Shown: piece by piece, positions 3,472 to 58,608 of the stretch | Position numbering within the stretch: position 1 is the first letter of the stretch | How the letters are laid out: each line of letters opens with the position of its first letter | Origin: an uncultured Gammaproteobacteria bacterium | GTDB taxonomy: Bacteria > Pseudomonadota > Gammaproteobacteria > Steroidobacterales > Rariloculaceae | NCBI GenBank assembly: GCA_963805435.1 | Contig: CAWDUG010000001.1 | Coordinates: 199,145 to 263,144, forward strand | DNA length: 64,000 nucleotides | Direction: 5' to 3' | Translations under genes and position numbers: made by a program | Notes under the pieces: model-generated | Told to the model about the DNA's origin: nothing | The model's database searches: none | The model's input: the letters and a program-made list of their open reading frames with translations, nothing else

Positions 3472-3691
3472 CGACTGGTCTGATAGGTGGCGGGCGCGTG
3501 CGCCGGGCGATCCGGTCCGCCGCGCCCCTCGCTCTCGACGAAGCAGGGGCACGACTGTATTTTGACCGAGCACGAGCGGCGATGGAACGGAGGTCGGAAG
3601 TGTGGCGAGCACGGAAAAAAACTTCGATTCTCGCGAGCGGAGGCCTCTGGGGCATGCAGGACGGCTCGGGTCGACAGTCGGAGGAGGCCGC

Positions 3692-5080
3692 ATGAGGGGG
3701 TTGTTTGCGACTGGATCGGTCCTCGCTGCGCTGTTGCTCGCCGCCTTGGTCGGTGCTCAGAGCACCCGCAGCGTAGGTCGCGGGGCACCGGTGTTGAAAG
3801 CGCTGCCGCACCCGAAAGGCGGGCCGCCACAGCTGTCGCAATACCTCGCCGAGTACCCGGTCGTCGGCCCGTTTCTCATCAAGCGCGGCGACAAGACGAT
3901 CCGGGTCGGGTCTGCCTGGGACGGTGCCGCTCCACCCGGCGTAACGCCTTTGCCGGTCGACATCTTCACGAGCAAGGATTTCTACAAAGACCGGGCGCTG
4001 TGGAGCGACCCGCGCTACTTCCGGTGCAATAGCAGTCTCGCGGTCGAGCAGCAGCACGGCGCCAGCAACTTCAGCGTTGCCGCGATCCATGGCGGTGCCG
4101 AGACCGCGGCCTGGGGCTACTGCGATCGCGACTATCCGCGCGCCGCGATCGTGAGCCCATATCCCTTCAAGACCGCGCAGGCGCACTACGAGGCGTTGCT
4201 CGCCGAGGCGAAGGCGCATGGCGGCCCCACCCAGCACACGCGCGCCAGCTTGCCGCTCGACTGGGACGGCCGTTACGGCAGCATCTCGATCGAGACCGTG
4301 ATCGGTACCTGGTACGGCATGGCCTGGAACCAGATCTCGACGATTCTTTCGCTTCTCACACCCGAGTATCAGACCCGCATGGTTCAACAGGAGTATCACG
4401 AGGGCACCACGAACGCGGCCCAGTGGCCGGGCATGTATTGCTGGCCCGAAGGCTTCATGCGTCGCTTCCACTTCGCGGGCACGGGCGTGAACCAGATCCT
4501 GGTGGCGCCAAAGCTCGTGCAGATCATGTCGTCGTTGGCAGGCAACTTCGTCACGGACATCAACATCGGCCGCCAATTCAACATGGAGGGTGTGGTGCCG
4601 CGGCTCGGCGCGGACGTGCCGCGCTGGTACGGCGAGACGATCGGCTTCTGGGACGGCGATGCTCTGATCACCTGGACGTCGAACATTCAGGGCTGGGCGT
4701 CGCACGGCGTGTTCGAGTTCTCGAGCAAGATGCAGACAGTCGAGATCTACACTCCGAATCGGGATGCCAGCGGCACGCTCGTGGGCCTGCACCATGAGGC
4801 GGTCTTTTACGACCCCGAAGCGCTCGTCGAGCCGATCCGCATCGTGCGCGACTTCGTCAAGCTGGGCGACTTCGACGAGGGCGAGCCGTATGTGTTCACG
4901 CAGTGCCTTCAGACGATCTACCCGATCAACGGGCTCGCCACACCGGTGGCGCCGCCGAAGGTGATCCCTTACGACGTCCTCGACATGTACAACCGGCCGT
5001 GGGCCCAGATCTGGGAGAAGTACTGGGAAAAGGGCATGAGCCGGCCCGAACCGACGGAGGACATCTTCAAGTTCGACTGA
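3692..5080 (+). CDS. secreted uncharacterised protein, large paralogue A (remote relative of the partner family)
   Basis: Start [24 protein letters not shown] (signal peptide). About 60 percent identical by eye to the 23069..24511 product. Shared blocks: [20 protein letters not shown] and [13 protein letters not shown][14 protein letters not shown]. Confidence 0.75.
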
Positions 5081-6193: not shown

Positions 6194-6589
6194 TTACTGC
6201 GTCGTCTCCTGCGCGCCGAACAACTGCTTGCCGTCCGGCAGCGTGACCTTGTCCGCGGCCGCTTTCAGGCTGCCGTCGCGGGCGCGCGAACCCGTGATCG
6301 TGATGGTGGCGCCTTTCGCCAGCGAATCCTGGTTCCAGCCGTAGCGCATGAGGCGGTTCGGGCTGCCGAGCTCGAACGCCCATGCTTCAGCCGCGCCGGT
6401 GTCGTTCTTCACGTCGAGGTAGATCCACGTGTGCGGGTTCATCCACTCGATGCGCGTGACCGTGCCGGTCACCTGCACGGGTTTCGCCGCGTCGAAGATG
6501 GCGGCGAACGAGTGGTGCGCCGCGGCGGGTAAGCTCGCGCCGAGGAGCGCAGCGGTGAGGCCGAGGATCCAAGGGCTCCGACTATTCAT
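6194..6589 (-). CDS. small secreted HH-protein (DUF6152-like), copy 1
   Basis: Signal peptide ending PAAA, followed by HHSFAAIFD. Contains the conserved TGTVTRIEWMNPHTWIYLDV block. Paralogous to four other copies in the window. Confidence 0.8.
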   Translation of the reverse strand: MNSRSPWILGLTAALLGASLPAAAHHSFAAIFDAAKPVQVTGTVTRIEWMNPHTWIYLDVKNDTGAAEAWAFELGSPNRLMRYGWNQDSLAKGATITITGSRARDGSLKAAADKVTLPDGKQLFGAQETTQ

Positions 6590-6717: not shown

Positions 6718-7569
6718 ATGTCGCGCACCGGGGGAATCAAGCTGCTGGCACCGCTTTGCGCGGTGCTTTTCCTGTGCTCCACGCCCCCCGTGTTCGCCCA
6801 GTGGCGCAACGCACCGCCCGAGGCCAACGTGCCGCGCACGCAGAGCGGTGAGGTCGATCTCGAAGCGCCCCCGCCGCGCCACGCCAACGGCCGCATCGAT
6901 CTTCAGGGCGTGTGGATGCCGAACGACAACCGCTACATCCGCGATCTCGCGCTCGACATCGGCGAAACCAAGGTTCCGTACCAGTCCTGGGCCCGACGCC
7001 TGACCGACGAGCGCAAGGACGGCTCGCATTCGCGTGAGGACCCGGATGCGCATTGCCTGCCGCAAGGCGTGCCGAAGATCGACTACGTGTCGTACCCGTG
7101 GAAGCTCGTCGAGACGCCGACGTCCGTCGTCATGATGTTCGAGACGTTCACGTTCTGGCGGCAGATCTTCACGGACGGCCGCACGGTGGACCCGAGCGCG
7201 AAACCCGCGTGGATGGGCTACTCAACGGGCCGTTGGGAGGGCGATACGCTCGTCGTCGAGACCACGGGTTTCAACGGCAAGCTCTGGCTCGACCAGATCG
7301 GTCACCCGACCACGGACCGCCTGCACGTGACCGAGCGCTTCACGCGGACGCACTACGGCCATATGCGCATCGACGTGACGATCGACGACCCGGGCGCCTA
7401 CACGGCGCCATGGTCCGCCTCGCAAGTCGTGCACTTGCGGCCGACGTGGGAGCCCCTCGAGTTCATCTGCGAAGAAAACAACCGGGATATGGAGAACCTG
7501 CCCGGCGACGCCTCGCTGGTCGGGGTCACGAACATCGAGGCTGCGCGGCGGAAGGGCTATCTCAAGTAG
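6718..7569 (+). CDS. secreted two-Cys partner protein, copy 1
   Basis: Signal peptide ...PPVFAQ. Family motifs present: IDLQGVW, CLPQGVP, GRWEGDTLVVETTGF, ERFT and the C-terminal FICEENN. Confidence 0.8.
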   Translation: MSRTGGIKLLAPLCAVLFLCSTPPVFAQWRNAPPEANVPRTQSGEVDLEAPPPRHANGRIDLQGVWMPNDNRYIRDLALDIGETKVPYQSWARRLTDERKDGSHSREDPDAHCLPQGVPKIDYVSYPWKLVETPTSVVMMFETFTFWRQIFTDGRTVDPSAKPAWMGYSTGRWEGDTLVVETTGFNGKLWLDQIGHPTTDRLHVTERFTRTHYGHMRIDVTIDDPGAYTAPWSASQVVHLRPTWEPLEFICEENNRDMENLPGDASLVGVTNIEAARRKGYLK

Positions 7570-7579
7570 GGGCCGGCGG

Positions 7580-8002
7580 TTATTCGGTCGCCGGCGCGCC
7601 GGTGCCGGGCGAGGTGATGAACAGCCGCTTGCCGTCCGGCAACGTCACGTCGCGGCCATTGGCGGCGTTCGAGCCGTTGCGGTGGCGGTAGCCGAAGACC
7701 ACGACTTCGGTGCCGGGCGGGATCGAGTCGCGCGTCATGCCGCGGCGCACGAGCGTGTTCGGGCTGCCGGCTTCGATCATCCAGCTCTCGACGGTGCCGT
7801 CGTCGCGCTTGACGTCGAGATGGATGAACGCGTGCGGATTGATCCACTCGACGCGCGTGATCGTTCCCTTGAGCGTGATGGGCTGCTTCGCATCGAACTC
7901 AGTCGAGAAGGCGTGATGCGCACCCGCAGCTCCCACGAGCGTCAGCAAGACGCCGCCGAGCGTCACGCCAAGGATGTTTCTCAGTAGCGCTCTTGCTTTC
8001 AT
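7580..8002 (-). CDS. small secreted HH-protein (DUF6152-like), copy 2
   Basis: MKARALLRNILG...GAAGA followed by HHAFSTEFD, then TRVEWINPHAFIHLDV. Its ATG (8000-8002) overlaps the TGA (7999-8001) of the upstream partner gene. Confidence 0.8.
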   Translation of the reverse strand: MKARALLRNILGVTLGGVLLTLVGAAGAHHAFSTEFDAKQPITLKGTITRVEWINPHAFIHLDVKRDDGTVESWMIEAGSPNTLVRRGMTRDSIPPGTEVVVFGYRHRNGSNAANGRDVTLPDGKRLFITSPGTGAPATE

Positions 8003-8973
8003 CGCTTGCCCTCCGCTGCCTTTCGCTCCTCTTCGCGCATCGCCGACAGGAGCCCTCGCATTCCGTAGTTGCCTTCGTGGCATGCGTACTCGACCATTTG
8101 TCCGCTCTGCGGATGCATGAAGATCTCCACGGTCCAAGGCGTCGTGAACACGGGGTCGTACACGGTCGCGCGATAACGGATCTGATCGGGTGCAGTGCGC
8201 GTGAATTGCTCCACGACGCGAAATTTGTCGCTCACGAGCGAGTCGAGCATTTGCACGCCGTAGTAATGTCGATTCGGTTTCTGGTTGGTCGTCTCGACGA
8301 CGAGCGTGTCGCCTTCCCATTTGCCGCGCGAGTCGCCGACCCATTGCGTGATGCGATTCGGGAAGTGGGCGCGGCCGTCGATCGGCACGATTCGCACCTC
8401 GTGATTCAGCTCGGCCATGATCGTGACGTAGTCCGGCGTTTGCACGATGTAGTAATTGTTGTTGTACGGCTCGGGCAGCATCGGTGCGTGTCCACCGCCG
8501 AAACCGATGCAGCGTTCCGTCAGATAGCGGTCCTCTGGCGTATCGGCCGGGTGCGCGGCGGCGTAGGCCACATCGCGGTCGAACTCGCGCTGCGCCGCGG
8601 CCGTGAACGGCGGCACGCGCCCGCTCTTGGGGTCGACGATCAGCGACGTTCGCCGCGTGGGCACGACGTCGTTGCCGCGGTCCATCCACGCGTCGTTGTA
8701 GGACCCGACGTTGCCGGCCGTCTTGTCCTGCTCGATGTTCTCGTCGCCGCTCTGCGCGGCGAGCCGCCGTTTCACGTACGCCTTGGCTTCCGCCGCCGTG
8801 AAGAACTCCTTGTCCTTGAGCTCGGCCGGGCGCTGCAACGGCGTCAGCGTCGCGTTGGACCAGGTTCCCTGCAGATCCGGGTCGCCCCACGGCGTGCGCG
8901 CCGGTTGTGCGCCGGCGAAAGGGCTCGCAAGTGCCAGCGGCAGCGCGATCATCACGAGCGAGTACGGTCTCAT
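7999..8973 (-). CDS. secreted two-Cys partner protein, copy 2
   Basis: Signal peptide ...FAGAQ. Motifs: PDLQGTW, ERCIGFG, RIVPIDGR, GKWEGDTLVVETT, EQFT and YACHEGN. Confidence 0.8.
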   Translation of the reverse strand: MRPYSLVMIALPLALASPFAGAQPARTPWGDPDLQGTWSNATLTPLQRPAELKDKEFFTAAEAKAYVKRRLAAQSGDENIEQDKTAGNVGSYNDAWMDRGNDVVPTRRTSLIVDPKSGRVPPFTAAAQREFDRDVAYAAAHPADTPEDRYLTERCIGFGGGHAPMLPEPYNNNYYIVQTPDYVTIMAELNHEVRIVPIDGRAHFPNRITQWVGDSRGKWEGDTLVVETTNQKPNRHYYGVQMLDSLVSDKFRVVEQFTRTAPDQIRYRATVYDPVFTTPWTVEIFMHPQSGQMVEYACHEGNYGMRGLLSAMREEERKAAEGKR

Positions 8974-8986
8974 GTCTTTCTCCTCG

Positions 8987-9745
8987 TCACTTCGGCCGCT
9001 TGTACAGATCGCCGTAGAGCAGTTCTTCGGTGAACGGCACGCACTTGAACTCCATCAGATGCGCGTGGCTGTCGGCATTCCTGAACAAGCGAAAGTGCAT
9101 CGACCACGGCCGGGAGAACGTCATCGGGTCCTCGAGCGTGGCCGAATAGTCGATCGCGTCGGGGCCCGCCGGAGTGTAGCGCTCCACCACGTGCAGCGCC
9201 GCGCTCGCGTGATTGCCCGCGCGATCGAGCCAGGCGAGCCCGTTGAAACCGCTCACGTCCACGACGAGCGTATCGCCGTCCCAACGCGCGTTCGACACGC
9301 CCATCCAGCTGTCGATCGCGGAGGGCTCCGGTTTGCCGAGGTTGATGATACGAGCGGTGCCGGCGAACTGATACGCGAAGAGCATGCGGCCATCCGAATG
9401 AAAGATCTGCAGCGGATACGGCATGTAGTTCGCACGCGGTACGCCGGGCATGAAGCATTTGACCTCGGGGTCTTCTTTCCAGCGATTCTCGTAGTTGCGC
9501 CGTTGCTGCTCGGCGGCTGCGGGCAGGTACGGAATTTCGTCGCCGTCGACGATGCCGTAGCCGGGCGGCGTCGCGAGCAGCGCGCCGTACTCGGGCGGGC
9601 CCGCGCTCGCGCCGTGTGTCAGGAGGTTCCAGTTGGCCGTCGTCGTTGCCTGCCACACACCGCTGAAGTTCGGTTTGCCGTTCGCGAGCCGCGGAAGGTC
9701 GCTCGCGCGCGAGCCTTGCGCGTGCGCGTTCGCGGCGAGCAGCAC
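8987..9745 (-). CDS. secreted two-Cys partner protein, copy 3; signal peptide probably disrupted by an indel
   Basis: Motifs: KPNFSGVW, KCFMPGVP, ARWDGDTLVVDVSGF, ERYT and FKCVPF. An ATG at 9778-9780 opens MRSTLAAS in another frame, which would complete a signal peptide (..TLCVLLAANAHAQ) if one indel near ~9755 is corrected. Confidence 0.75.
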   Translation of the reverse strand: MLLAANAHAQGSRASDLPRLANGKPNFSGVWQATTTANWNLLTHGASAGPPEYGALLATPPGYGIVDGDEIPYLPAAAEQQRRNYENRWKEDPEVKCFMPGVPRANYMPYPLQIFHSDGRMLFAYQFAGTARIINLGKPEPSAIDSWMGVSNARWDGDTLVVDVSGFNGLAWLDRAGNHASAALHVVERYTPAGPDAIDYSATLEDPMTFSRPWSMHFRLFRNADSHAHLMEFKCVPFTEELLYGDLYKRPK

Positions 9746-9792: not shown

Positions 9793-11059
9793 TCAGTCGT
9801 GTGCAGGCTCGATTCGCAGAATCGAGCCGTTGGGTGTGAGCTTGGTGCTGCCGGGGCCGGATTGTCCGTCCCTTTCGACCGCCAGATAGAGGTTGCCGTC
9901 CGGACCTTGGCGCACGTCGCGCACGCGCGCGTCGAGCGACACGAGCATCGATTCGCGGCGCTCGAGTTGCGGCGGCGGCTGATCGAACGCGACGCGCAGC
10001 AACTGCTGGCCGCTCAGCGCTCCAATGAAGTAGTGGCCGCGCCAGAGCGGGAACTTATCGCCGGTGTAGATCATGAGGCTCGATGGGCTGATGGCGGGTA
10101 CCCAGAACATCACGGGGTTGTCCATGCCGGGTCGCGACCACGGCTGGTCCGAGGCGAGATGCCCGGTGTAGATCTTGCCGAGCGACACGAGTGGCCAGCC
10201 GTAGTTGTGCCCCGGAACGAGACGGTTCAGCTCGTCGCCACCCATCGGGCCGATCTCGGTAGCCCAGAGCTCGCCGGTTTGCGGATGCCAGGCGAGCCCC
10301 TGCACGTTGCGGTGGCCGTAGGTATAGATCTCGGGCTTGGCGTCCTTGCGGCCGACGAACGGATTGTCCGGGGCTGCGGTGCCGTCGTCGCGCAGCCGCA
10401 GAACCTTGCCGACGTGGGTATTGAGATCCTGCGCGAGCATGCGGTAGCTCGGGTTGTCGGTCGTGTTGCCGGCGTCGCGGTCGCCGACCGTCAGATAGAG
10501 CATCCGGTCGGGCCCAATCTCCAGGCGGCCGGCGGTCGCGCCCGTGCCCCAGGCGTCGGCGACGAACACGTCCTGCACGGCCTCGAGCGACGTGCCGTCG
10601 AACTTACCGCGCGCGAGCGCGATCGTCGTGTCGCCGCCGTCGCGCTGTTTCACGTACGAGAAATACAGCTGTTGGTTGCGCGCGAAATCCGGATGCAGCA
10701 CGACGGAGTTCATGCTGCGCGCATGCAGCGCATCGGCGGGCCAGCCGGCGACCGGTTTCGGCATCGAGCTTCCCGCCGCGCACGATGCGCAGGTCGCCGG
10801 GGAGCTCCGTCACGAGCATGTCGGTGCCGCCCGGCAGAAACGTCAGGTGCCAGGGCCGCACGAGCCCGTAGGCGACGGTGACGACGTGAATCCGCACGAG
10901 CTCGCCCGGTGGGCAGCCGCCGTGCGGCGAGCCGTTCGGCGAACAGGGGCCCGGCGTGTGGGTGTCGAACGTCCAGCTGGCGTTGTCGTCCTGCGCGCGG
11001 ACGAGCGGGGCCGCACACAACGCAGCGGCCGCGAGCATGATCGATCGAACCTGCAGCAT
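9793..11059 (-). pseudogene. PQQ-dependent sugar dehydrogenase (sGDH/YliI type), one frameshift
   Basis: C-terminal ORF 9793..10764 has YTYGHRNVQGLAWHPQTGELWATEIGPMGGDELN and NYGWP blocks typical of soluble aldose/sorbosone dehydrogenases. The N-terminal part (MLQVRSIML...signal...[15 protein letters not shown]) is in another frame, with the junction near ~10759. Confidence 0.8.
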
Positions 11060-11160
11060 CCCCCGCCCCCCGGCTGAGACCAACGTGGCCCGAACGACGA
11101 TAGGGGAGCGTGCGCGGCGGCGTCAAGGACAGCACGGATACCACCCGCGAGAACCGCTCG

Positions 11161-11242: not shown

Positions 11243-12629
11243 TTGACGTACGGGCGCCGTCCTCGACGGGGGGTAATGATGAACGATCGCACGCTACGCT
11301 CGTGGTTTCTGCTGGCGTTACTGGCACTCGCGCAGGGCTGCACGCCGACCGCGCCACCCACTGCAGCCGCGAGCCCGCCCTCGCCGGCAGCGCCCGACCC
11401 GCTCGTGTTCGACACCTGGGTGCCGGGCCCGTGCTCGCCGAACGGTCAGCCGCAAGGCCAGTGCCCGCCGGGAGATCTGTTCCGCGTGCGCCTCGTCCCG
11501 GTGGCCGAAGGGCTCAGGAGCCCGCGCCACATCGCGTTCACGCCGGACGGCGATCTCCTGATCACCGAGCTTGCGGCGCCGGCGGGAGACCCCGGCGGGC
11601 GGCAATCAATCCGTGCAGGGTCAACCTGGCCGCGTGCGTATCGTGCATGCCGGAGTGCTCGCGTCAGAGCCACTCGCGGGTTGGCCCGCGCCGGGCATCA
11701 CGGCCGGCGCGTTGTGGTCGATCGTCGTGCACCCGCAGTTCGCGGCGAACCACCTCGTGTACCTGTACTACGTCAAGAAGCGCGACGGGATGTCGACGCG
11801 CGCGCTCGCGCGCGCGCGCCTCGAGGGCACTTCGCTGCTCGACGTGCAGGAGATCTTCGAAGCCGACGCGTGGATTCCGGGCGGGCCGATGGCGGGCCGC
11901 GCCGTCTTCGGGCCCGACGGCATGATCTATCTGACGGTGAACGATCACGTCGAGCACGACTACAAGAACGGCGGCGGCGAGCCGCTGCTCGCGCAACAGC
12001 TCGACAACGACATCGGCAAGGTCTTGCGTCTGCGCGACGACGGCGGCATTCCGGCCGACAACCCGTTCGTCGGGCGCAAGGGTGCGAAACCCGAGATCTA
12101 TACCTTCGGGCAGCGCAACGTGACGGACTTCGCCTGGCATCCGGAGACGGGCGAGCTCTGGACCACGGAGATCGCGCCCATGGGCGGCGACGAGATCAAC
12201 ATCCTGCACGCCGGGAAGAACTACGGTTGGCCGCTCGTATCGCTCGGCAAGAACTACAACTTGAAAGAGATGAACGACAACCACTGGTACCGGCCGGGCA
12301 TGGAAATGCCCGTCATGTACTGGACGCCCGCGATCAGTCCGTCGACGTTGACGTGGTACACGGGCGACAAGCTCGCGCCGTGGAAGGGGCATCTGTTCGT
12401 CGGCGCGCTGAACGGCCAGACGCTCGTGCGCGTGGCGTTCGATCAGCCCATGCCGCAAGGCGAACGGCGCGATTCGCTGTTCATGTCGCTCGGCCGGCGC
12501 TGGCGCCACGTGGTTCAGGGGCCGGACGGCTATCTGTATGCGCTGACGGAGAAGCGCACGCTCGGTAGCCCTGCGGATCCGAACGACGCGACGAGCGGGG
12601 TCGTTTACCGCATCGAGCCGGCGCAGTAG
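11243..12629 (+). pseudogene. PQQ-dependent sugar dehydrogenase (sGDH/YliI type) lipoprotein, one frameshift
   Basis: N terminus ...LLALLALAQGC has a lipobox; the true start may be the MMNDRT codons at ~11276. The C-terminal ORF 11571..12629 has YTFGQRNVTDFAWHPETGELWTTEIAPMGGDEIN and NYGWP. Frame junction is at ~11600-11625. Paralogue of 9793..11059, including the shared PGPCSPNG-x-P-x-G-x-CPPG segment. Confidence 0.8.
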
Positions 12630-12657
12630 CGTACTCGGCACAGATGGGAGACTGGCA

Positions 12658-13035
12658 GTGACGCGAAATCTTCTGGCCCTCCTTGCGTTCGCGGCGCCCG
12701 CGTTCGGCCATCATTCGGAGACTGCTGAGTTCAATCCCGACACCCCGGTGAAGGTGACCGGCACGATCGTGAAGGTGGAGTGGCTGAATCCTCACGTGTG
12801 GTTCTATGTCGACGTGAAGGACGAGAAAGGCAACGTGACGACGTGGGGATTTGCCGGAGCGCCTCCCGGTTCCCTGATGCGCAGGGGCATCACGAAGGAA
12901 GTCTTGAAGATCGGCTCCGTCGTCAACGTCGAAGGTTCGCGCGCGAGGGACGGCTCGAACAACGCGTCGAGCCGAAGCGTGACGTTCGCCGACGGCAGAA
13001 ACGTGTTCACCGCCACGAACGAGGGTTCGCGATGA
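12658..13035 (+). CDS. small secreted HH-protein (DUF6152-like), copy 3
   Basis: GTG start. Signal ...APAFG followed by HHSETAEFN, then VKVEWLNPHVWFYVDV. Its TGA (13033-13035) overlaps the ATG (13032-13034) of the next gene. Confidence 0.75.
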   Translation: MTRNLLALLAFAAPAFGHHSETAEFNPDTPVKVTGTIVKVEWLNPHVWFYVDVKDEKGNVTTWGFAGAPPGSLMRRGITKEVLKIGSVVNVEGSRARDGSNNASSRSVTFADGRNVFTATNEGSR

Positions 13036-13803
13036 AACGCGTCTGGCCACGGGCGAGCGGTCTTTTGGCGGTCGCTCACGCTCGCTGCGATCGCGATCGC
13101 GAGGGCGCGAGGACGTGCCCCGCATGCCGGACGGCAAACCGGACTTTTCTGGTATCTACACGCAGCCTTCCACGGTGAACGCGACGGGCCCGCGCGGCAA
13201 TCTGATCTTCAACGCGGACAAGATGGCGCCTGTGAAGCCCGGCGCCGAAAGCCTGCTCTACGAGCCGCGCAACGGCGACCCGCGTCACGACGAGCCGCGC
13301 GCGATGTGCCTGCCGGCAGGGTTCCCCGACGGCATGCTGTACATTCTGCCGATTCAGATCGTCCAGAACCCGAACACCATCGTGATCATTCCCGAGCTGC
13401 AGCGCGCGGCGCGGATCATCCCGACCGATGGCCGCCCGCATCAGCGACGGGCATCGAGCCCACGTACTACGGCGATTCGGTAGGGAAGTGGGAAGGCGAC
13501 ACGCTCGTGATCGACAGCGTGAACTTCAAGCGCTGGATCCTGGACGACTACCACTACACCGACCCGACGAAGACGCGCTGGCACAGCGACGCGCTGCACA
13601 CGACCGAACGCTTGAAGCGCGACGGCGACAAGCTCCTCTACCAGATCACGATCGACGATCCGAAGATCTTCACGAAGCCGTTCTCGCAGGATTTCGTGCT
13701 GACGTTGCGCCGTGACTGGGAGCAGCTCGGCCTTCTCGAGTACGTGTGCGAGGAGAACAATCGCTGCGCGGGCGGGCACTGCCGCGCCTCGGACGCGCAG
13801 TAG
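13032..13803 (+). pseudogene. secreted two-Cys partner protein, copy 4, about three frameshifts
   Basis: MKRVWPRASGLLAV (frame 1), LTLAAIAIARA (frame 2) and VPRMPDGKPDFSGIY...CLPAGFP...RIIPTDGRPH (ORF 13115..13483), then GKWEGDTLVIDSVNF...ERL...YVCEENN (ORF 13306..13803). Junctions near ~13072, ~13108 and ~13440. Confidence 0.7.
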
Positions 13804-15199: not shown

Positions 15200-18100
15200 A
15201 TGCGCCTCTCGCACTTCTTCATCGACCGGCCGATCTTCGCGGCCGCGGTGTCGGTGGTCATCACGCTGACCGGGCGTCATCTCGTACCTCACGCTGCCGG
15301 TCGACCAGTATCCGAACATCGCGCCGCCCACGGTGTCGGTCAACGCGCTGTATCCGGGCGCCACGGCCGAGGAGATCGCGGACACGGTGGCCGCGCCGCT
15401 CGAGCAGCAGATCAACGGCATCAGCCGACATGCTGTACATGTCGTCCTCGTCCACGAGCGAGGGGCGCATGACGATCACCGTCACGTTCAAGAACGGCAC
15501 GAACGTCGACATCGCGCAGGTGGACGTGCAGAACCGCATCCAGTCGGTGCTGCCGCAGCTGCCGCAGACCGTGCGCGACCTGGGCATCACGGTGCGCAAG
15601 GGCTCGACCGGACATTCTGCTGATCGTGCACATGTTCGCCACCGATGCGAGCGTGGACCGCAAGTACATCGCGAACTACGCGAACCTGCAGGTGCGCGAG
15701 CGGCTGCTGCGCACGCCGGGCGTGGGCGACGTGAACATGAACGCCGCGCGCGACTACGCCATGCGCGTGTGGATCGATCCGGAGCGCGCGGCCGCGCGCG
15801 ACCTCACCGTGCAGGAAATCGTCGATGCGCTGCGCAACAACAACCTGCAGGTCGCCGGCGGCGCCATCGGCTCGCCGCCGTTCAACGACAACCCCGCCGC
15901 GTACCAGCTGAACATGCGCGCGCAGGGCCGGCTCGAAACGCCGGAGGAATTCGCGGACGCCATCATCAAGCGCGATGCGCAGGGCCGCGTCACGCGCATC
16001 GGCGACGTGGCGCGCGTGGAGCTCGGCGCGCAGAACTACGCGCGTCAACGCGTACAAGAGCCTGGATCCCGCCGTGTCGCTCAGCGTGCAACAGGCGCCG
16101 AACACCAACGCGCTCGAGACGTGGGACAACATCCGCAGCACGATGGAGGAGCTGAAGACCCAGTTCCCGCCGGGCGTGGCCTACGAGATCATCTTCAACC
16201 CCGTGGCGTTCACGCGCGCGGCCGTGGAGGCCGTGCAGGAGACGCTGCTCGAGGCCATGATCCTCGCGGTCATCGTGGTCATGCTGTTCCTGCAGCGCTG
16301 GCGCACGGCCATGATCCCGCTGCTCGCGATTCCCGTGTCGCTGATCGGCACGCTGACGGTCATGTCGGCGTTCGGCTTCTCGCTGAACAACCTGTCGATG
16401 TTCGGGCTCGTGCTGTCGATCGGCATCGTGGTCGACGACGCGATCGTCGTGGTCGAGAACGCGGAGCGGCACATTCGCGCCGGCATGGCGCCGCGCGACG
16501 CCGCGCATCTCACGATGGACGAGTGCGGCGGCGCGCTGATCGGCATCGCGCTCGTGCTCGTGGCCGTGTTCGTGCCCGACGGCGTTCATGGGCGGCATCG
16601 CCGGCGCGTTCTACAAGCAGTTCGCGCTGACGATCGCGTCGGCCACGGTGATCTCGCTGGTCGTGTCGCTCACGCTGTCGCCGGCGCTCGCGGCCGTGAT
16701 CCTGACGCCGCACGATGCCGTGCACCGCGCGCACGGCGCTTCGGTGCGCGGCTGCACGCGCTGGCCGAGCGCGCGAATGGCTGGCTCGAGCGGCTCTCCG
16801 GCCGCTTACGCGCGCCTCACGCGGCGCTGCGCTGCGCCATCGCGCGATGCTGATCGGCGCTGTACGCGCGGACTGGTCGTGCTCACGGCCTGGCGCGTGA
16901 TCGACACGCCGCGCGGCTTCGTGCCCGTCGCAGGACCAGAACGACGTACTGATCCAGATCACGATGCCGCCGGGCACGAGCCTCGCGCGCACCGATGCCC
17001 TCGTGCAGCAGGTGATTCCCGATCATCCTGGGCACGCCCGGCGTGTCGTCGGCCTCCGTGTATGCCGGCATGGGCGGCGGCAGCTTCAGCAACTCCACGA
17101 ACTGCGGGCCAGATCTTCGCGATCTTCGATCCGTTCGAGAAGCGCCTGCCGAAGGGGCAGACGTTGCCGGTCGATCGCGGCCGAGCTGCGCAAGCGGCTG
17201 TCCGCTTTCACGGCCGCCGAGATCCGCGTCGTGAACCCGGCTTCGGTGCGCGGCATGGGCAACGCCGGTGGCTTTCAGCATGATGGTCGAGGACCGCGGC
17301 GGGCTCGGGTTATCGCGCGCTCGAGGACGCGGTGCAGCGGCTCACGGAAGCGGCGCTCGAAGGACCCGGCCATCTCGCAGGCGTTCAGCGACTTCAACAC
17401 GCGCAACCCGACGCTCGATGCCGTGGTGGATCGCGACAAGGCCGAGATGCTCGGCGTGCCGGTGCGCAACATGTTCGGCACGCTGCAGACCTATCTCGCC
17501 GGCACGTACGTCAACAACATCAACATGCTGGGCCACACGTTCCAGGTGATCGCGCAGGGCGACGCCAGCTACCGCCAGGACGCAGGAATGGGTGGGGCAG
17601 CTGAAGACGCGCTCGGCGTCCGGCGCCATGGTGCCGATCAGCGCGATCGCGAAGCTGCAGCCCGCCACCGCGCCGTATCGCGTGGTGCGCTACAACCTGT
17701 ATCCCGCCGCCGACATCCAGGGCGACACGGCCGCCGGCCATTCGTCCGGCGAAGCGATGGCCGCGATGGAGCGCATCGCGCGCGATACGCTGCCGGCCGG
17801 CATGAGCTTCGAGTGGACGGGCATCGCCTACCAGCAGCGCTTGTCCGGCGACGCCGGCGGGCTCGCGTTCGTCGCTCGGCGTGGTGTTCGTGTTCATCTT
17901 CCTCGCGGCGCTGTACGAGAGCCTGACGCTGCCGCTGGCCGTGATCCTGATCGTGCCGATGTGCCTGCTCGCCGCGATCCTCGGCGTGAACCTGCGCGGC
18001 CTCGACAACAACATCCTGACGCAGATCGGCATGGTGGTGCTGATCGGCCTCGCGGCGAAGAACGCGATCCTGATCGTCGAGTTCGCGCGCCAGGGCGAGG

Positions 18101-18390
18101 AGCACGGCTTGAACAGCGTCGACGCCGCGATCGCGGCCGCGAAGACGCGGTTGCGCCCGATCCTGATGACGTCGGCCGCGTTCATCTTCGGCGTGATTCC
18201 GCTCGCGTTCGCCAGCGGCCCCGGCGCGGAGCTGCGCCAGGCGCTCGGCGTGGGCGTGTTCTACGGCATGATCGGCGTGACCGTGTTCGGCCTCGTGTTC
18301 ACGCCGCTGTTCTACGTGCTGAGCCGCAAGCTCGCGCCAGCGCTTCTCGCGCGAGTCGCACGTGCCGCGCGTGCGTGTAGCGGGCGATAA
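15200..18390 (+). pseudogene. RND (HAE1, AcrB/MexB-like) efflux transporter, ten or more frameshifts
   Basis: [25 protein letters not shown] at 15200, then collinear AcrB-like segments that switch frame repeatedly. Examples: [90 protein letters not shown] and LPLAVILIVPMCLLAAILG...LIGLAAKNAILIVEFA. Stop at 18388-18390. Confidence 0.8.
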
Positions 18391-22901: not shown

Positions 22902-23068
22902 GCGTGTGAACGTGGCCTCACGCGCGACATTGCGCACGGTCACGAGACCGTGGCTCGAGTCTTGGAGAAACTGGATAGCGTGAGACTCCGCGTTACACGG
23001 CCAACCCGTGGACCGGGGGGTGACGGCCAGCGTACGATGCCCCGCAAGTAATCACTCGGGGAAGATCA

Positions 23069-24511
23069 GTGAAGTTCACTCAACGTCTCTGGACAACCGC
23101 TACCGCGGCATGCCTTGCGACCAGTTTCGCTGCGCCCGTCATTGCACAGCAGGTCGCGGACCCCGGCTTCAAGAGCGTGGGCCGCGGCGCGCCCGTGGCG
23201 GCGGCTATGCCCACGGTGACACTCCAGCTCGGACCACGGGCTGCAAACGTGGATCCCGCGGAGACGCAGCGGTCCATGGAAGTGGTAAACCGCGTGTTCG
23301 TCGGGCCGTTTGCGTTCGGCCCCGTGCGCGTCGTCGCCGCGCAAGACGGCGCCGTGCCGGCGGGCGTGCAGGCGCTACCGACCGACCTGTTCACGTCGAA
23401 GGACTTCTACTCCGATCGCGCGCTGTGGACCGACAAGCGCTACTTCCGCTGCAACAGCCCGCTCGCGCTCGAGTCGCAACGAGGCGCGATCGGGGGCGGG
23501 CTGATCGGTAAAGATCCGCCGCGCACAGCTGCGTGGGGATATTGCGATCGCGATTACCCGCGCGAAGGCATCGTGAGTCCCTACAAGTTCAAGACCGCGC
23601 AGGAGCACTACGAAGCGTTGCTCGCGGAAACGAAGAAGCGCGGCGGCCCCACGCAGCACACGTATGCCACCGTTCCGGGCGACGTGAACGGCCGCTACGC
23701 GCCGGGCGGCTTCTTCGATAACTGGTATTCCGCGATGCTCGCGGTGCAGCTCCCGACCGTGCTGTCGGTGCTGACGCCGGAATATCAGAAGCGCTTCGTT
23801 CAGGATATGTACCACCAGGGCAACACGAACGCGCCGCAGTGGCCGTCGCAGTACTGCTGGCCCGAGGGGTTCATGCGGCGCTGGTACTCGGCCGCCATCC
23901 AGTTCCCGCAGACCGTGATCGTGACGCCGTCGCTGTTTCACATCGAAGCCGGCGTCGCCGACAACTTCATCACGAACGTCTACATCGGCCGCACGTTCAA
24001 CATGGAGGATGTCGCGAAGGGCGGGGTCCCTCGCCTGGGCCCGGCGGTGCCGCGCTGGTACGGCGAGACGATCGGCTTCTGGGACAAGGACGCACTCATC
24101 ACGTGGACGTCGAACATCCAGGGCTGGGCCGGCCACGGCGTGTTCGAGTTCTCGAGCAAGCTGCAGACGATCGAGATCTACACGCCGGTGCGCGACCAGG
24201 CGGGCAAGGTTACGGCGCTGAACCACGAGTCCGTGTTCTACGACCCGGAAGCGTTCGTCGAGCCGATCCGCATCGTCCGCAACTACCGGCGGCTCTCCGG
24301 CTTCGAGGAAGGGGATCCTCCGCCCTTCATCGAATGCATTGCGACGATCTTCCCGATCAAGGGGCACTCGACGCCGGTGAGCCCCGGCACGACGATCGAG
24401 TACGAAGTGCCGGACATGTTCGGCCGGCCGTGGGCCCACCTCTGGGAGGAGTACTTCGAGAAGGGAATGAAGCGGCCCGACGAGAAGGACATCTTCGACT
24501 TCAGCAAGTGA
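23069..24511 (+). CDS. secreted uncharacterised protein, large paralogue B
   Basis: GTG start. Signal peptide ...FAAPVIAQQ. Collinear with the 3692..5080 product, sharing [35 protein letters not shown] and [24 protein letters not shown]. Confidence 0.75.
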   Translation: MKFTQRLWTTATAACLATSFAAPVIAQQVADPGFKSVGRGAPVAAAMPTVTLQLGPRAANVDPAETQRSMEVVNRVFVGPFAFGPVRVVAAQDGAVPAGVQALPTDLFTSKDFYSDRALWTDKRYFRCNSPLALESQRGAIGGGLIGKDPPRTAAWGYCDRDYPREGIVSPYKFKTAQEHYEALLAETKKRGGPTQHTYATVPGDVNGRYAPGGFFDNWYSAMLAVQLPTVLSVLTPEYQKRFVQDMYHQGNTNAPQWPSQYCWPEGFMRRWYSAAIQFPQTVIVTPSLFHIEAGVADNFITNVYIGRTFNMEDVAKGGVPRLGPAVPRWYGETIGFWDKDALITWTSNIQGWAGHGVFEFSSKLQTIEIYTPVRDQAGKVTALNHESVFYDPEAFVEPIRIVRNYRRLSGFEEGDPPPFIECIATIFPIKGHSTPVSPGTTIEYEVPDMFGRPWAHLWEEYFEKGMKRPDEKDIFDFSK

Positions 24512-25379: not shown

Positions 25380-26424
25380 TCAGTGTTCGCCGGCCGTCAG
25401 GTGGCGTCGCGCGGTGGCCGGATCGCAGAGGTACTCCTGCAGCTTGTAGCCGGCGTTCAAGTTGAAGCGCTGCTCGTCCGTCACCGGCTTCGCGAGGTAC
25501 TCGGGGTCCGTCATCGTGAAGTGCAGCGTCAATCCGCGGCCGTCGTCGCTCAGCGTGTAACGCTCGACGGTCGTCTTGCGCTCGCTCGAGTCGACGCCTC
25601 GGCCGTTACCCCAGCGCACGGGCGCGAACTTCGCCGTCTCGATCACGAGCTCGCCGTTCTCGAGCCGGCCGATCGAGTGGCCGAGCGGCGAGGGCGCCAC
25701 GGCGGTCGGATGGGACGCCATGTTCAGATGCACGACGCGCTTCAGCTCGTTGACCTCGTAGTGGATCTCGAGCGTGTCGGCATTCGGCCGCGTGATCTGG
25801 AACGGATACGGGTAGCCCAGGATCTCCGGCATCGTCTGCGGTGAGCAGTCCCACTCGGGGTTGCTGATCGGGGTCGAAGTGATCGAGCTCGGCCTGACCC
25901 TTGGCCGTGACCGGCAGCGTGTTCACGACCACGGTGTCGGGGCGGTTGCGCCCGAGCACGTCGCCCTTGAACTGAATCCGCCACACGCCGGTGAAATCCG
26001 TCGACTTGGCCGCCAATTGCTCCGCGGAGGGCTTTGGTGGGGAGGTGAGTTGGGGGCCGCCCCAGGCCCAGATGTCCTTGCCGTCTCTGATGAACAGGTT
26101 CGCGTAAATGAAGTGCCGCTCGGCGTTCCGATCCGGGTTGCCGCGCGCGACCACGCGGTCGCCCTGCTTCAGCGTGTCGGGCGTCCAGCCGAACCGCATG
26201 AGCACCGGCGTGGAGTTCAGCTCGAACGTCCACTGCTCGACCGGGCCGTCGCCCTTTCTGCCTTCCACCACCGCGTAGGCGTGGGGATTGCGCCACGAGA
26301 ACTCCTTGACCGTACCCGTGATCTCGACCGTGGAGTCGAGATCGAAGTTCGCACGCGAGTGATGGGCGAGGGCGGGAGCTGCGACGAAGGCTGTCGCGAA
26401 TGCTGCAAGGGTGTGGGCACGCAT
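25380..26424 (-). pseudogene. fusion of HH-protein (DUF6152-like) and two-Cys partner domains, one frameshift
   Basis: N-terminal part: MRAHTLAAFATAFVAAPALA, then HHSRANFD...FSWRNPHAYAVVEG. Then TDFTGVW (partner N-terminal motif). After an indel in a C run near ~25853 comes EWDCSPQTMPEILGYPYP...GRLENGELVIETAKF...ERYT...YLCDP (ORF 25380..25832). Confidence 0.75.
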
Positions 26425-34243: not shown

Positions 34244-35071
34244 CTAGCGCGACGGCGGCGTCAGGATGAACTTGCCGTCGACGATGGGGTTGCGCTCCTC
34301 GCCTTCGCAATCCTCGTACACCATGCGGTGGATCTGCGTGACGCGCTGATACGTGCGCTTCATGTGCCAGGGTCCGGTGAGATTCTTGGGATCCACGATC
34401 GTGATTTCATTCTCCAGCAGATCCTTGTTCAGCATTCGGATGCGTTCGGTGAAGTGCGCGTCCGCGCTCAGGAACGCGATCATCTGCGATTCCTCGATGC
34501 CGCCGAAGGCGATCACGGCCGAGCCTTCGCGTCCCGGAAAGGCCGACTTCACCGCGATGGTATCGATGACGAGCGTCGCACCTTCCCAGTGGCCGATCGA
34601 ATCGCCCCAGGGCGTCGGCCACAGGTCGTCCTTGCCAGGGTGCTCGCGCCCATCCGTATACACGTGGCGGATCTCGCGGCTCGAGAAGATCAGCGCCGTC
34701 TCGTTCGGCGTCGGTAGAATCTCGAACATCAACGGCGACTCGAGCATCACCGTGGGATAGCCGAACGTGCAGGCCGTCACGGCGCCGCCCGGGTCCTTCC
34801 CTTGCCGCATGGCTTCCATGGCCGCACGCTGCCCCGCGACCACTCTGTCGATGACCGCTTGCGACTCGGGTCTAAGCGGCGGTGACCACTCGAGCTCTTT
34901 AAGCACCTGCTCGAGCGGCTCGTAGAACCCGCCGTCCGGGCTCGGCGTGGCGCCGACGTTCTCCCATTGGCCGCTCCAGTCCGGCAGCGGTGCTGGCGCC
35001 GGTGCGCACGCCACTGCCGCGCACGCGAGCAGCAGAGCCGCGGCGGCGCGTACCGAGAAACGCCCGCTCAC
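34244..35071 (-). CDS. secreted two-Cys partner protein, copy 5
   Basis: Lipoprotein-like signal ...LLLACAAVAC. Motifs: PDWSGQW, ACTFGYP, GHWEGATLVIDT, ERI and YEDCEGEE. The GTG start (35069-35071) overlaps the TGA of the upstream HH-protein gene. Confidence 0.75.
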   Translation of the reverse strand: MSGRFSVRAAAALLLACAAVACAPAPAPLPDWSGQWENVGATPSPDGGFYEPLEQVLKELEWSPPLRPESQAVIDRVVAGQRAAMEAMRQGKDPGGAVTACTFGYPTVMLESPLMFEILPTPNETALIFSSREIRHVYTDGREHPGKDDLWPTPWGDSIGHWEGATLVIDTIAVKSAFPGREGSAVIAFGGIEESQMIAFLSADAHFTERIRMLNKDLLENEITIVDPKNLTGPWHMKRTYQRVTQIHRMVYEDCEGEERNPIVDGKFILTPPSR

Positions 35072-35469
35072 TTGCGCGGCTCCGGTCGCGCGGGCGGTGC
35101 GCTGCCGATCAGGGGGCCGCCCGGCCCGATGCCCGAAAGGTACTGGCCGCCATGGTCGCCATCAACGAGGGGATGGATGTTCAGCGTGACCTGCTCGCCG
35201 GGCTTCAACGTGCCCGGTCGCCACCCGGTTCGCGCCAGGTGCTCGGGGCTGGTCATCTCGATGCTCCACTCGTCTTCGGCGCCTTGGGCGTTCTTCACGA
35301 GCACCTGGATGAAGACGTGCGGGTTGGTCCAGCGGAGCTCCTTGACGGCGCCTTGCAGCGTGACCGTCTTCGACTGGTCGAACATGGCGAACGAGTGATG
35401 CGCGAGGGCGGAGCCTGCTGCGAGCAGGATCGCGACGGCGATGGAGGCGCGATTTCGCAGTGTGCTCAT
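35068..35469 (-). CDS. small secreted HH-protein (DUF6152-like), copy 4
   Basis: MSTLRNRASIAVAILLAAGSALA followed by HHSFAMFD, then KELRWTNPHVFIQVLV. ATG at 35467-35469. Confidence 0.8.
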   Translation of the reverse strand: MSTLRNRASIAVAILLAAGSALAHHSFAMFDQSKTVTLQGAVKELRWTNPHVFIQVLVKNAQGAEDEWSIEMTSPEHLARTGWRPGTLKPGEQVTLNIHPLVDGDHGGQYLSGIGPGGPLIGSAPPARPEPRK

Positions 35470-36341: not shown

Positions 36342-37655
36342 CTAGATCTGCAGCCGCCCCGTGCTCGCCCCGATCGAGTCGCAGCGCGCATTCGCGATAT
36401 CCGCGAACGCCACGAGCAGGTTCGCGGTCGGCTCCTTGTGGTCGACCGTGATGTGCCGGCCGCCCTTGAGCCGGCCGTTCGCGCCACCGAGCAGCACCGC
36501 GGGCGGGCTGTTGCGGTCGTGGGCGTTGCCGTTGCTCATGCCGGCACCCCAGTAGACGAGCGATGCGTCGAGCAACGTGCCGTCGCCGTCCGGCGTGGCC
36601 TGAAGCTTGCCGACGAACTCGGCGAATTTCGCGATCTGGTAGGTCACGAGCTTCGCGTACTTTTCGATGCCCTCCGGTTTGTCGCCGTGATGCGAGACCG
36701 GGTGATGCGGCTCGGGGATGCCGATGTGCGCGTAGCTGCGGCTGCTGCCCTCGTGACCGAGCATGAACGTGAAGACGCGCGTGATGTCGCCCTGGAACGC
36801 GAGATGCAACAAGTCGTACGTGACGGTCAGGTGATCGTCGAAGTTGTCCGGAATGCCGACGGGCGCATCGGGCGCAGCCGCGATCGTGTCCGAGCGCGTC
36901 TGCATCTTCTGTAGCGATTCCTCCACGCGGCGCACGTTCGTCAAGTACTCGTCGAGCACGGCGTTGTCGTGGCTGCCGAGCTTGCGCTCGAGGCGCGAGG
37001 TCTCGTCGGCGACCGAATCCAGGATGCTCTGCTTCCGGCGCAAGCGCGCCAAGCGCTGCTGCGCACTGCCAGGGTCGCCGAACATGCGCTCGAACGTGAC
37101 CTGCGGGTTGATGGCAACCGGCAGCGGACTCGTGTCGTCGCGCCACGCGAGCGTGTTGAAGAACACGCACGGGAAGCCGTCGCACGCGCCGGCAGCCGTG
37201 CCCATGTCCTCGGTACCGACTTCGAGCGAGCGCAGCGGCGTGTCTTCGGCCACCGCGTCCGCGATGAACTGGTCGACAGTCTTCTTCGACTCGATCTTGC
37301 CGTAGCTGCCCGCCGTGTTGACGGGACCAACGCCGTTCAGGAACGCGGCGCTCGCGCCGAGATGCACGGAGCCATCGGGCGCCTTCAGCTTGCTGATCGT
37401 GACGAGGCGCTCGCGATACGGCTCGAGCGGCTTCATGATCGGCTGGAAGTCGAACCCCGTGCCGACCTTCGTCGGATGCCAGAGCTGCGGATACACGCCG
37501 TTCGGCATGTAGATCGCGCCGAAGCGCAGCGGCCGCTTCGCGCTCGACTGGCCGAATGCCGGCAGCATCGAGTCGAGCAGCGGCAACGCGACCGCGACGC
37601 CGGCGCCGCGCAGGAAGGTACGGCGGTGCAAGTGCTTCTTCGTGATGAACGTCAT
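36342..37655 (-). CDS. DUF1552 domain protein (Tat signal), copy A
   Basis: MTFITKKHLHRRTFLRGAGVAVALPLLDSM twin-arginine signal. Contains HHPVSHH and GAGMSNGNAHD blocks. Lies directly downstream (2-nt gap) of a DUF1592-type gene, the known pairing for this family. Confidence 0.8.
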   Translation of the reverse strand: MTFITKKHLHRRTFLRGAGVAVALPLLDSMLPAFGQSSAKRPLRFGAIYMPNGVYPQLWHPTKVGTGFDFQPIMKPLEPYRERLVTISKLKAPDGSVHLGASAAFLNGVGPVNTAGSYGKIESKKTVDQFIADAVAEDTPLRSLEVGTEDMGTAAGACDGFPCVFFNTLAWRDDTSPLPVAINPQVTFERMFGDPGSAQQRLARLRRKQSILDSVADETSRLERKLGSHDNAVLDEYLTNVRRVEESLQKMQTRSDTIAAAPDAPVGIPDNFDDHLTVTYDLLHLAFQGDITRVFTFMLGHEGSSRSYAHIGIPEPHHPVSHHGDKPEGIEKYAKLVTYQIAKFAEFVGKLQATPDGDGTLLDASLVYWGAGMSNGNAHDRNSPPAVLLGGANGRLKGGRHITVDHKEPTANLLVAFADIANARCDSIGASTGRLQI

Positions 37656-37657
37656 GG

Positions 37658-40054: not shown

Positions 40055-40096
40055 CGCAACGACGGCGCCCGCGCCAGCAATGTAGCACGGACTTCC

Positions 40097-54690: not shown

Positions 54691-54704
54691 CCAAGGGGAA
54701 GCTC

Positions 54705-56049
54705 ATGTTCATCACGAAGAAGCATCTGTCCCGCCGCACGGTGCTGAAGGCCGCCGGCGTTTAGCTTGAGCCTGCCGCTGCTCGACGCGATGATCCCGGC
54801 GGCCACGGCGCTCGCGCAGACCGCGGCAAAGCCGAAGCTCCGCGCCGGGTTCTTCTACATTCCGCACGGCGCGATCATGTGGAACACGCCGTACGGCAAG
54901 GACATGGACCACTGGACGCCGAGCGGCGCGGGCGCCGACTTCAAGTTGAGCCCGATCTTGAAGCCGCTCGAGAACTACAAGCGCTACGTAGCCACGTTCG
55001 GCAACCTCGAGAACAAGCTGCCGCAGGGCTCCGTGCACACGATCGTGCCGGCCACGTGGCTCTCGAGCGTCAAGCCGGACCAGAAGGCCACGGGCGCGCA
55101 CATGGCGCAGACGATCGACCAGATGATCGCGGCGAAGATCGGCGGCGACACCGTGCTGCCGAGTCTCGAGGTGGCGTCCGAGACCACCACGCAGAGCGCC
55201 GCGTGCGGCACGGGCGCGTGCTACTACAGCTCGACGCTGTCGTTCCGCAACGCCACCACGCCGCTGCCGATGGAGTTCAACCCGCGCAAGGTGTTCGTGC
55301 AGCTGTTCGGCGCCGGCGACACGGCCGAGGAGCGCGCGACGCTCGCGCACCGGCGCGCGAGCGTGCTCGACATGATCAGCGGCCGCACGCAGGAGTTGAA
55401 GCGCGAGCTCGGCCCCGCCGATCAGCGCGTGCTCGACGGCTACCTCGAGTCCGTGCGCGAGACGGAGCGGCGCGTCGCGAAGGCGTCCGAGCGCGATCTC
55501 ACCGGCATCGACCTGCCCGGCGCGCCGATCGGCGAGCTGCCGGATTTCGATGAGCAGGTGAAGCTCATGTTCGATCTGATCCACCTCGCGTATCAGGCGA
55601 ACATCACGCGCGTGGCGTCGTACATCATGGTGGCCGAGGGCACGAACCGCACGTACAACCACATCGGCGTGTCCGACGCGTTCCACCCGCTGTCGCACCA
55701 CGCGAACAACAAGGACCGCATCGAGAAGCTCGTGAAGGTGCAGACCTACCACGTGCAGCGCTTCGCGGACTTCTTCGACAAGCTCGCGAAGACGCCCGAC
55801 GGCGAAGGCTCGCTGCTCGATCACTCGCTGCTGATGTACGGCTCGAACATGAGCAACAGCGATCGGCACAACAACTATCCGCTGCCGATCCTGCTCGCCG
55901 GCGGCGCGAACGGCGCGTTGAAGGGCGGGCAGCACGTGATGTTGCCCGAGTACACCACGTTCTCGAATCTGCATCTCACCGTTTTGAACAAGGCCGGGCT
56001 CGAGCAGAAGAGCATCGGCGACAGCACGGGCGAGATCGCGGGCGTCTAG
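54705..56049 (+). pseudogene. DUF1552 domain protein (Tat signal), copy B, one frameshift in the signal region
   Basis: MFITKKHLSRRTVLKAAGV stops at 54762-54764. ...LSLPLLDAMIPA continues in ORF 54766..56049, which carries FHPLSHH and GSNMSNSDRHN. Junction at a TTT run near ~54762. Confidence 0.8.
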
Positions 56050-58590: not shown

Positions 58591-58608
58591 TAGGGGGAGT
58601 TACAACGT

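Follow-up and report, generated by a model that had tools for sequence, protein, structure and literature searches.

DUF6152 (PF19649) is a family of exported proteins in which three histidines, a His-His pair at the predicted mature N-terminus and a third in a downstream NPH turn, are kept almost without exception, and whose genes have a near-obligatory beta-barrel partner. The partner is the main contextual fact about the family, and was missed by the preliminary description of the window (the whole 64,000-nucleotide stretch of DNA analysed here), which had proposed a histidine-brace-type metal site in five small secreted proteins. Taken as a whole, the best explanation is that DUF6152 is an exported OB-fold domain with a His-triad metal site, probably a copper site of a histidine-brace-like kind, that acts together with the barrel partner; we advance it tentatively, as falling a little short of an even chance.

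The window contains five DUF6152 copies, given here with the junction between the predicted signal peptide and the mature protein.

6194–6589, minus strand: DUF6152 copy 1, 131 aa, junction PAAA/HHSFAAIFD, PF19649 match with E = 8e-33
6518–6589, minus strand: signal peptide of copy 1
6512–6517, minus strand: His1-His2 codons of copy 1
6431–6445, minus strand: W-M-N-P-H of copy 1
7580–8002, minus strand: DUF6152 copy 2, 140 aa, junction AAGA/HHAFSTEFD, Pfam match
12658–13035, plus strand: DUF6152 copy 3, 125 aa, junction PAFG/HHSETAEFN, Pfam match
35068–35469, minus strand: DUF6152 copy 4, 133 aa, junction SALA/HHSFAMFD, Pfam match
from 26424 downwards, minus strand: DUF6152 copy 5, the N-terminal domain of a fusion gene, junction PALA/HHSRANFD
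25380–26424, minus strand: DUF6152–partner fusion gene, with the DUF6152 domain at 26056–26424 and the partner domain at 25404–25865

All five copies matched PF19649 at 87–116 bits (E from 1e-24 to 1e-34), for which the curated gathering threshold is 27 bits, and none had a further Pfam match at E ≤ 0.01. Copies 2–5 share 33–48% identity with copy 1, and the alignment of the five has 17 invariant columns, including H25, H26, W49, N51, P52 and H53 (copy 1 numbering). The preliminary description had read His-His directly behind an A-x-A-type signal-peptidase site, and further downstream the pattern G-x-[VI]-x-x-[VIFL]-x-W-x-N-P-H-x-[WFY]; both readings hold for all five copies, with A-x-A or A-x-G at the site, about 27–28 residues from His-His to the pattern, and the ORFs as claimed. 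At 25380–26424 it had correctly placed an N-terminal domain carrying HH, and was mistaken in treating the locus as a single continuous ORF: the frames of the two domains differ by one base near 25873–25885, at a CCCC run, and the C-terminal frame spans 25380–25865. Splits affect at least five other genes of the window, and on that ground we favour assembly error here and reject a programmed frameshift.

DUF6152 is a large family, with 17332 representatives at 50% identity and E ≤ 1e-3, and 10649 at E ≤ 1e-10. Its genomic occurrences come chiefly from soil MAGs, those of Acidobacteriota (Terriglobia, Bryobacterales, Vicinamibacterales) and Gammaproteobacteria, with some Alphaproteobacteria, and there are many paralogues per genome, as with the five copies within 64 kb here. 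The PF19649 entry holds no functional annotation (family of unknown function). A literature search on DUF6152 and PF19649 returned no paper mentioning the family, and one on the histidine brace combined with the OB-fold or other context returned nothing on DUF6152. Neither DUF6152 nor the partner family had a relative in the PDB by sequence and profile searches, and NCBIfam had no model matching the copies or the partner.

Invariance of the three histidines in database homologues had been set beforehand as a test of the metal-site proposal. The H-H...H triad was kept in 368 of 371 first or only DUF6152 domains (a set of representatives, close homologues, 80 genome loci and the window copies), and the three exceptions were truncated or frameshifted. 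Among the best 150 representatives, which share <50% pairwise identity, 148 had HH and x-P-H set 27 or 28 residues apart; the remaining two were artefacts of the motif search, and the triad was present in the later alignment. Position −1 was Ala in 137 and Gly in 9 of these 150 representatives, and a Trp stood four residues ahead of the loop His in 136. Across the 371 domains, D33, W49, W70 and E73 were 93–99% conserved, and G42, G65, L80, G84 and G93 were further columns conserved at ≥93%. The profiles that chose the main samples contain the motif, and we therefore sampled additionally through the partner gene. In this blind sample of 80 metagenome loci, picked via the partner alignment and searched with a DUF6152 HMM whose five site columns were masked, HH and NPH were present in 16 of the 16 matches covering the N-terminus. 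At the level of sequence, the motif is a family signature, far beyond chance and kept across proteins less than 50% identical.

Export features were equally regular. In 361 sequences, the 22 residues upstream of HH held a ten-residue window with a Kyte–Doolittle value of ≥1.6 in 98.9% of cases, and at least one Lys or Arg lay upstream of HH in 99.4%. Position −1 was A or G in 357 of the 361, and a single sequence had anything other than A, V, L, I, S, T or G at −3. All five window copies combine the −3/−1 rule with a hydrophobic core and a basic n-region, and reading their sequences revealed neither a lipobox Cys nor a twin-arginine motif. From these features across the 361 sequences, we therefore infer that cleavage making His residue 1 is to be expected; by the −3/−1 rule, the predicted cleavage leaves no residue ahead of His, as the preliminary description had supposed.

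The AlphaFold2 model of copy 1, for which the input alignment consisted of the five paralogues only, had an OB-fold core with a pLDDT of about 90 and low confidence for the signal peptide and the HH segment. Its modelled DSSP order, b1-b2-b3-helix-b4-b5, is the OB-fold pattern with the helix between strands 3 and 4. Foldseek returned LysRS anticodon-binding domains, PriB and SSB (E of about 5e-4), a generic OB-fold result. Strands 1, 2 and 3 came out as paired in mean-field DCA (Meff 228), which for the N-terminal segment gave one weak non-trivial coupling, F28–E73, resting on 3 sequences, and the others involved invariant columns.

A partner-family gene lies beside or near every DUF6152 copy in the window (5 of 5), one of them as the fusion described above. 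The separate genes are as follows.

6718–7569, plus strand: partner-family protein, 283 aa, secreted, divergent from copy 1
7999–8973, minus strand: partner-family protein, 324 aa, in the operon of copy 2
8987–9745, minus strand: second partner-family protein in the operon of copy 2, 252 aa
13115–13803, plus strand: partner-family gene, frameshifted near 13440–13460, with HMM matches in two frames (model positions 44–155 and 157–251)
34244–35071, minus strand: partner-family protein, 275 aa, downstream of copy 4

Two junctions are 4-nt overlaps, between the stop of the upstream partner and the start of copy 2 (7999–8002) and between the stop of copy 4 and the start of the downstream partner (35068–35071), which suggests translational coupling. 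The partner family had no match in Pfam, as in NCBIfam and the PDB. It has at least 7997 homologues, all unnamed or 'hypothetical', and the closest named ones among the matches listed come from Gammaproteobacteria MAGs. Its conserved residues are Trp, Gly, Asp, Glu, Arg and two Cys, the latter probably forming a disulfide; no His is conserved in the family. In 80 genome loci chosen via DUF6152 from Acidobacteriota, Alphaproteobacteria and Gammaproteobacteria, a partner gene lay ≤400 bp from 76 of 96 DUF6152 domains, and BLAST clustering found a partner-type ORF in all 80 loci. The reverse linkage was weak, with DUF6152 in just 5 of the 24 partner-chosen metagenome loci (L081–L160) that had full 2.5-kb flanks. 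The partner family is therefore the larger of the two and the dependence runs mainly one way; DUF6152 looks like an accessory to part of the partner family.

We modelled the two domains together in the mature form of an intact fusion (P0268), aligned with 104 other fusions. The model had a mean pLDDT of 92.3 and a pTM of 0.87, with a pLDDT of 77 for the first ten residues, and ran from the OB domain through a linker and two short helices to a beta domain of ten strands (pLDDT >90). The high pTM of this model indicates a defined arrangement of the OB and barrel domains. In a Foldseek search with the whole fusion, OB-fold matches dominated, and the best non-OB match was the dinoflagellate luciferase barrel 1vpr (prob 0.93, TM 0.25); nothing significant was returned for the barrel domain. 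With its ten predicted strands the partner may be compared with calycin/lipocalin-like barrels of eight to ten antiparallel strands, to which the structural resemblance of the model is weak, as the 1vpr match illustrates. Two secreted proteins of about 495 aa (3602–5080 and 23024–24511, both on the plus strand), which share 56% identity and match nothing in Pfam or NCBIfam, align weakly with the partner barrel over their C-terminal ~170 residues (hhalign probability 58%, E 1e-4). Possibly these two proteins represent a larger and remote branch of the partner family.

Two of the window copies belong to operons headed by PQQ-type dehydrogenases.

9793–11083, minus strand: PF07995 PQQ-type soluble glucose/sorbosone dehydrogenase, frameshift-split into 10604–11083 and 9793–10764
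11243–12629, plus strand: second PF07995 dehydrogenase, with the Pfam match in 11562–12626 and the N-terminal part apparently in another frame

For the second gene, 11243–11600 was assigned as an extension by reading the ORF translations and holds no Pfam match. The minus-strand operon, from 11083 to 7580, has its dehydrogenase at the head, then the partners and DUF6152 copy 2; the plus-strand operon, from 11243 to 13803, has its dehydrogenase at the head, then copy 3, which starts 29 nt past the dehydrogenase, and a partner. The two operons diverge. Elsewhere, PF07995 was adjacent to DUF6152 in just 2 of the 80 other loci; PQQ beta-propeller dehydrogenases of the PF01011 type were present in 13 of the 80 DUF6152 loci by BLAST and in 22 of the 80 by clustering, sometimes directly adjacent, and TonB-type outer-membrane proteins in 11 of the 80. 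Genes for CopA/B/C/D, CusF, multicopper oxidase, Sco or PCuAC were neither found near the window copies nor recurrent in the 80 loci.

Several other features of these neighbourhoods were recorded. A family of small secreted ORFs of about 141 aa with no Pfam match (for example, L013:779-1201) occurs beside DUF6152–partner clusters in 8 of the 80 loci. In the window, genes for the methionine sulfoxide reductases MsrA (PF01625; 5185–5694, plus strand) and MsrB (PF01641; 5700–6170, plus strand) directly adjoin copy 1 and are convergent with it, giving it an oxidative-repair neighbourhood. Two sets of DUF1552 (HXXSHH) and DUF1587/1592/1588/1585/1595 'PSD'-type proteins, uncharacterised and exported, lie at 36342–40096 (minus strand) and 52262–56049 (plus strand). 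The window also encodes further PQQ beta-propeller dehydrogenases at 58478–59865 (plus strand) and 63060–63998 (minus strand), one of which is a quinohaemoprotein by virtue of a cytochrome c domain at its C-terminus.

Splits by a single frameshift recur along the window, in partner genes (13440–13460 and 25873–25885), in the PF07995 genes (10604–11083 versus 9793–10764, and 11243–11600 versus 11571–12629), in an AcrB-type pump (15912–16853 versus 17806–18390) and in the PQQ dehydrogenase at 58478–59865. Partner genes are likewise split in many loci from long-read 'MFD' MAGs. These widespread splits look like assembly indel errors, not pseudogenes or programmed frameshifting.

The position of the domain within longer proteins proved informative about the triad. 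Two DUF6152 domain matches were found in 11 proteins, of which two (P0133 and P0239) look like fragments and nine are informative. None of the nine internal domains has the full triad: five are without HH, their loop reading DPH, NPA, DPI, GAS or NPF, and four keep HH with the loop His replaced by N or R. In fusions with the partner, DUF6152 comes first in 106 of 106 database cases and in the sole fused ORF of the genome loci (L023); among unfused pairs, the order partner-then-DUF6152 is the commoner (41, against 28 for the reverse). At 90% identity the fusions make up at least 105 clusters; they extend to identities as low as 26% and include intact proteins of about 345 aa outside the window. 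Absence of the triad from internal domains and the DUF6152-first order of the fusions fit a need for a free N-terminus, with the caveats that second domains may simply be degenerate and that a DUF6152-first protein served as the seed of the fusion set. The four internal domains with HH and without the NPH His imply that HH may also have a role independent of the terminus.

These observations allow us to propose how DUF6152 might work. The protein would be a Sec-exported periplasmic OB-fold domain that signal-peptidase cleavage leaves with a His-His start. His1, His2 and the invariant His of the NPH turn, in the loop between strands 1 and 2, would probably converge on one mononuclear metal site, to which Asp9 and Glu49 (mature numbering) may add. 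The likeliest chemistry would be copper bound by His1, through both its free amine and its imidazole, together with additional imidazoles, in a histidine-brace-like manner. DUF6152 would thus be a metal-bearing accessory subunit, or N-terminal domain, of an unannotated ten-stranded beta-barrel protein, and periplasmic PQQ dehydrogenases, which share an operon with the pair in part of the family, could supply electrons. A histidine brace takes its ligands from an N-terminal His, through NH2 and pi-N, and from another His, through tau-N (PMC10952591); a brace of this kind is a plausible reading of DUF6152. The copper brace-like mode leads because the free chelate of an N-terminal His is expected to favour Cu(II) (PMC10952591) and because only N-terminal domains keep the triad.

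The same residues could instead make an imidazole-only Zn, Fe, Ni or Mn site, of a three-His or two-His-one-carboxylate type, in which the N-terminal amine is uninvolved and the terminal position of the His is incidental. His1 and His2 are equally invariant, D33 and E73 are conserved, the neighbourhood lacks copper genes and four internal domains retain HH, all of which such a site would accommodate. It needs no N-terminal placement, however, yet there are no internal full triads and every fusion is DUF6152-first; a free periplasmic His1 amine would, moreover, be expected to chelate Cu(II) anyway (PMC10952591). We therefore judge an imidazole-only site unlikely.

It also seems improbable that no metal is involved and that HH and the NPH loop serve acid–base or ligand contacts at the OB/barrel interface, tetrapyrrole or quinone binding, or plugging of the barrel. 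Three invariant histidines together with Asp, Glu and two Trp are more typical of a metal site, and no evidence of an organic ligand was obtained, whereas the linkage and fusion to a barrel that weakly resembles ligand-binding calycin-type barrels, a pTM suggestive of a fixed domain interface, the many paralogues per genome and the nearby PQQ enzymes would all suit such a role. A copper or metal trafficking or buffering chaperone like CopC, YcnI or CusF, not part of an enzyme, is quite doubtful: CusF is likewise a periplasmic OB-fold copper chaperone, but a chaperone would not usually occur five times within 64 kb and many times per genome, adjacent genes for metal transporters or copper handling are absent, the protein tightly coupled to DUF6152 is a barrel and not a transporter, and CusF homology was undetectable (hhalign probability 1.3% against a CusF sequence). 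In favour of that assignment, the bacterial brace-like proteins known so far have mostly been assigned to copper transport (PMC10952591).

If the copper brace-like site preferred here is confirmed, the metal site of DUF6152 would be of a known kind, and its scaffold and dedicated partner would be new. To our knowledge, few protein scaffolds carry histidine-brace copper sites, and these sites perform some of biology's hardest oxidations, in LPMOs and in methane and ammonia monooxygenases. The reach of brace chemistry in soil bacteria would then be wider, with thousands of clusters and many copies per genome, and two large orphan families, DUF6152 and a barrel family without a Pfam entry, would gain a testable function. 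In its most far-reaching form, the proposal would make DUF6152 a large unrecognised bacterial class of copper histidine-brace proteins on an OB-fold that forms, with the barrel, a periplasmic oxidative enzyme fed by PQQ dehydrogenases in some lineages and is abundant and multi-copy in soil Acidobacteriota and Proteobacteria; we regard that as a long shot. Were the metal not copper, what would stand is a conserved periplasmic module, of two genes or fused, whose candidate active site is sharply defined.

Compared with known systems, DUF6152 shares a predicted secreted His1 and a distal conserved His with the brace proteins (LPMO AA9–AA17, PmoB CuB and X325/Bim1) and with the variants CopC, PmoF1 and YcnI, a likeness that is drawn from sequence. 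The scaffold of LPMO, X325, CopC and PmoB is a beta-sandwich, immunoglobulin- or cupredoxin-like, whereas DUF6152 is modelled as an OB-fold, which no brace protein is known to have; a canonical brace, in which one copper ion sits in T-shaped N3 geometry with the tau-N of the distal His trans to His1, has no need of His2, whereas DUF6152 has an invariant second His at position 2; and, unlike that of known brace proteins, the gene context is without copper genes. With an OB-fold model and no match to the Pfam models of LPMO, X325, CopC or PmoB, the DUF6152 proteins are an OB-fold class outside the LPMO, X325, CopC, PmoB, YcnI and CusF families. The brace interpretation in the preliminary description thus survives in part: the predicted cleavage position and the conservation of the histidines support it, and the fold and gene context argue against simply filing DUF6152 as a brace protein.

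CusF, a periplasmic OB-fold Cu(I)/Ag(I) chaperone with a His/Met/Met/Trp Cu(I) site, resembles DUF6152 in its small size, periplasmic location and OB-fold, and in having a conserved Trp close to the proposed site and a His near the N-terminus. It differs in that no Met is found among the DUF6152 columns conserved at ≥80%. We rejected homology to CusF on the hhalign result given above and the absence of a PF11604 match. The remaining likeness is to the fungal pair of LPMO and AA12, in which the PQQ AA12 dehydrogenase is known to drive LPMOs (PMC5960967): by analogy only, two operons in the window set an sGDH-type PQQ dehydrogenase beside a candidate N-terminal-His metalloprotein.
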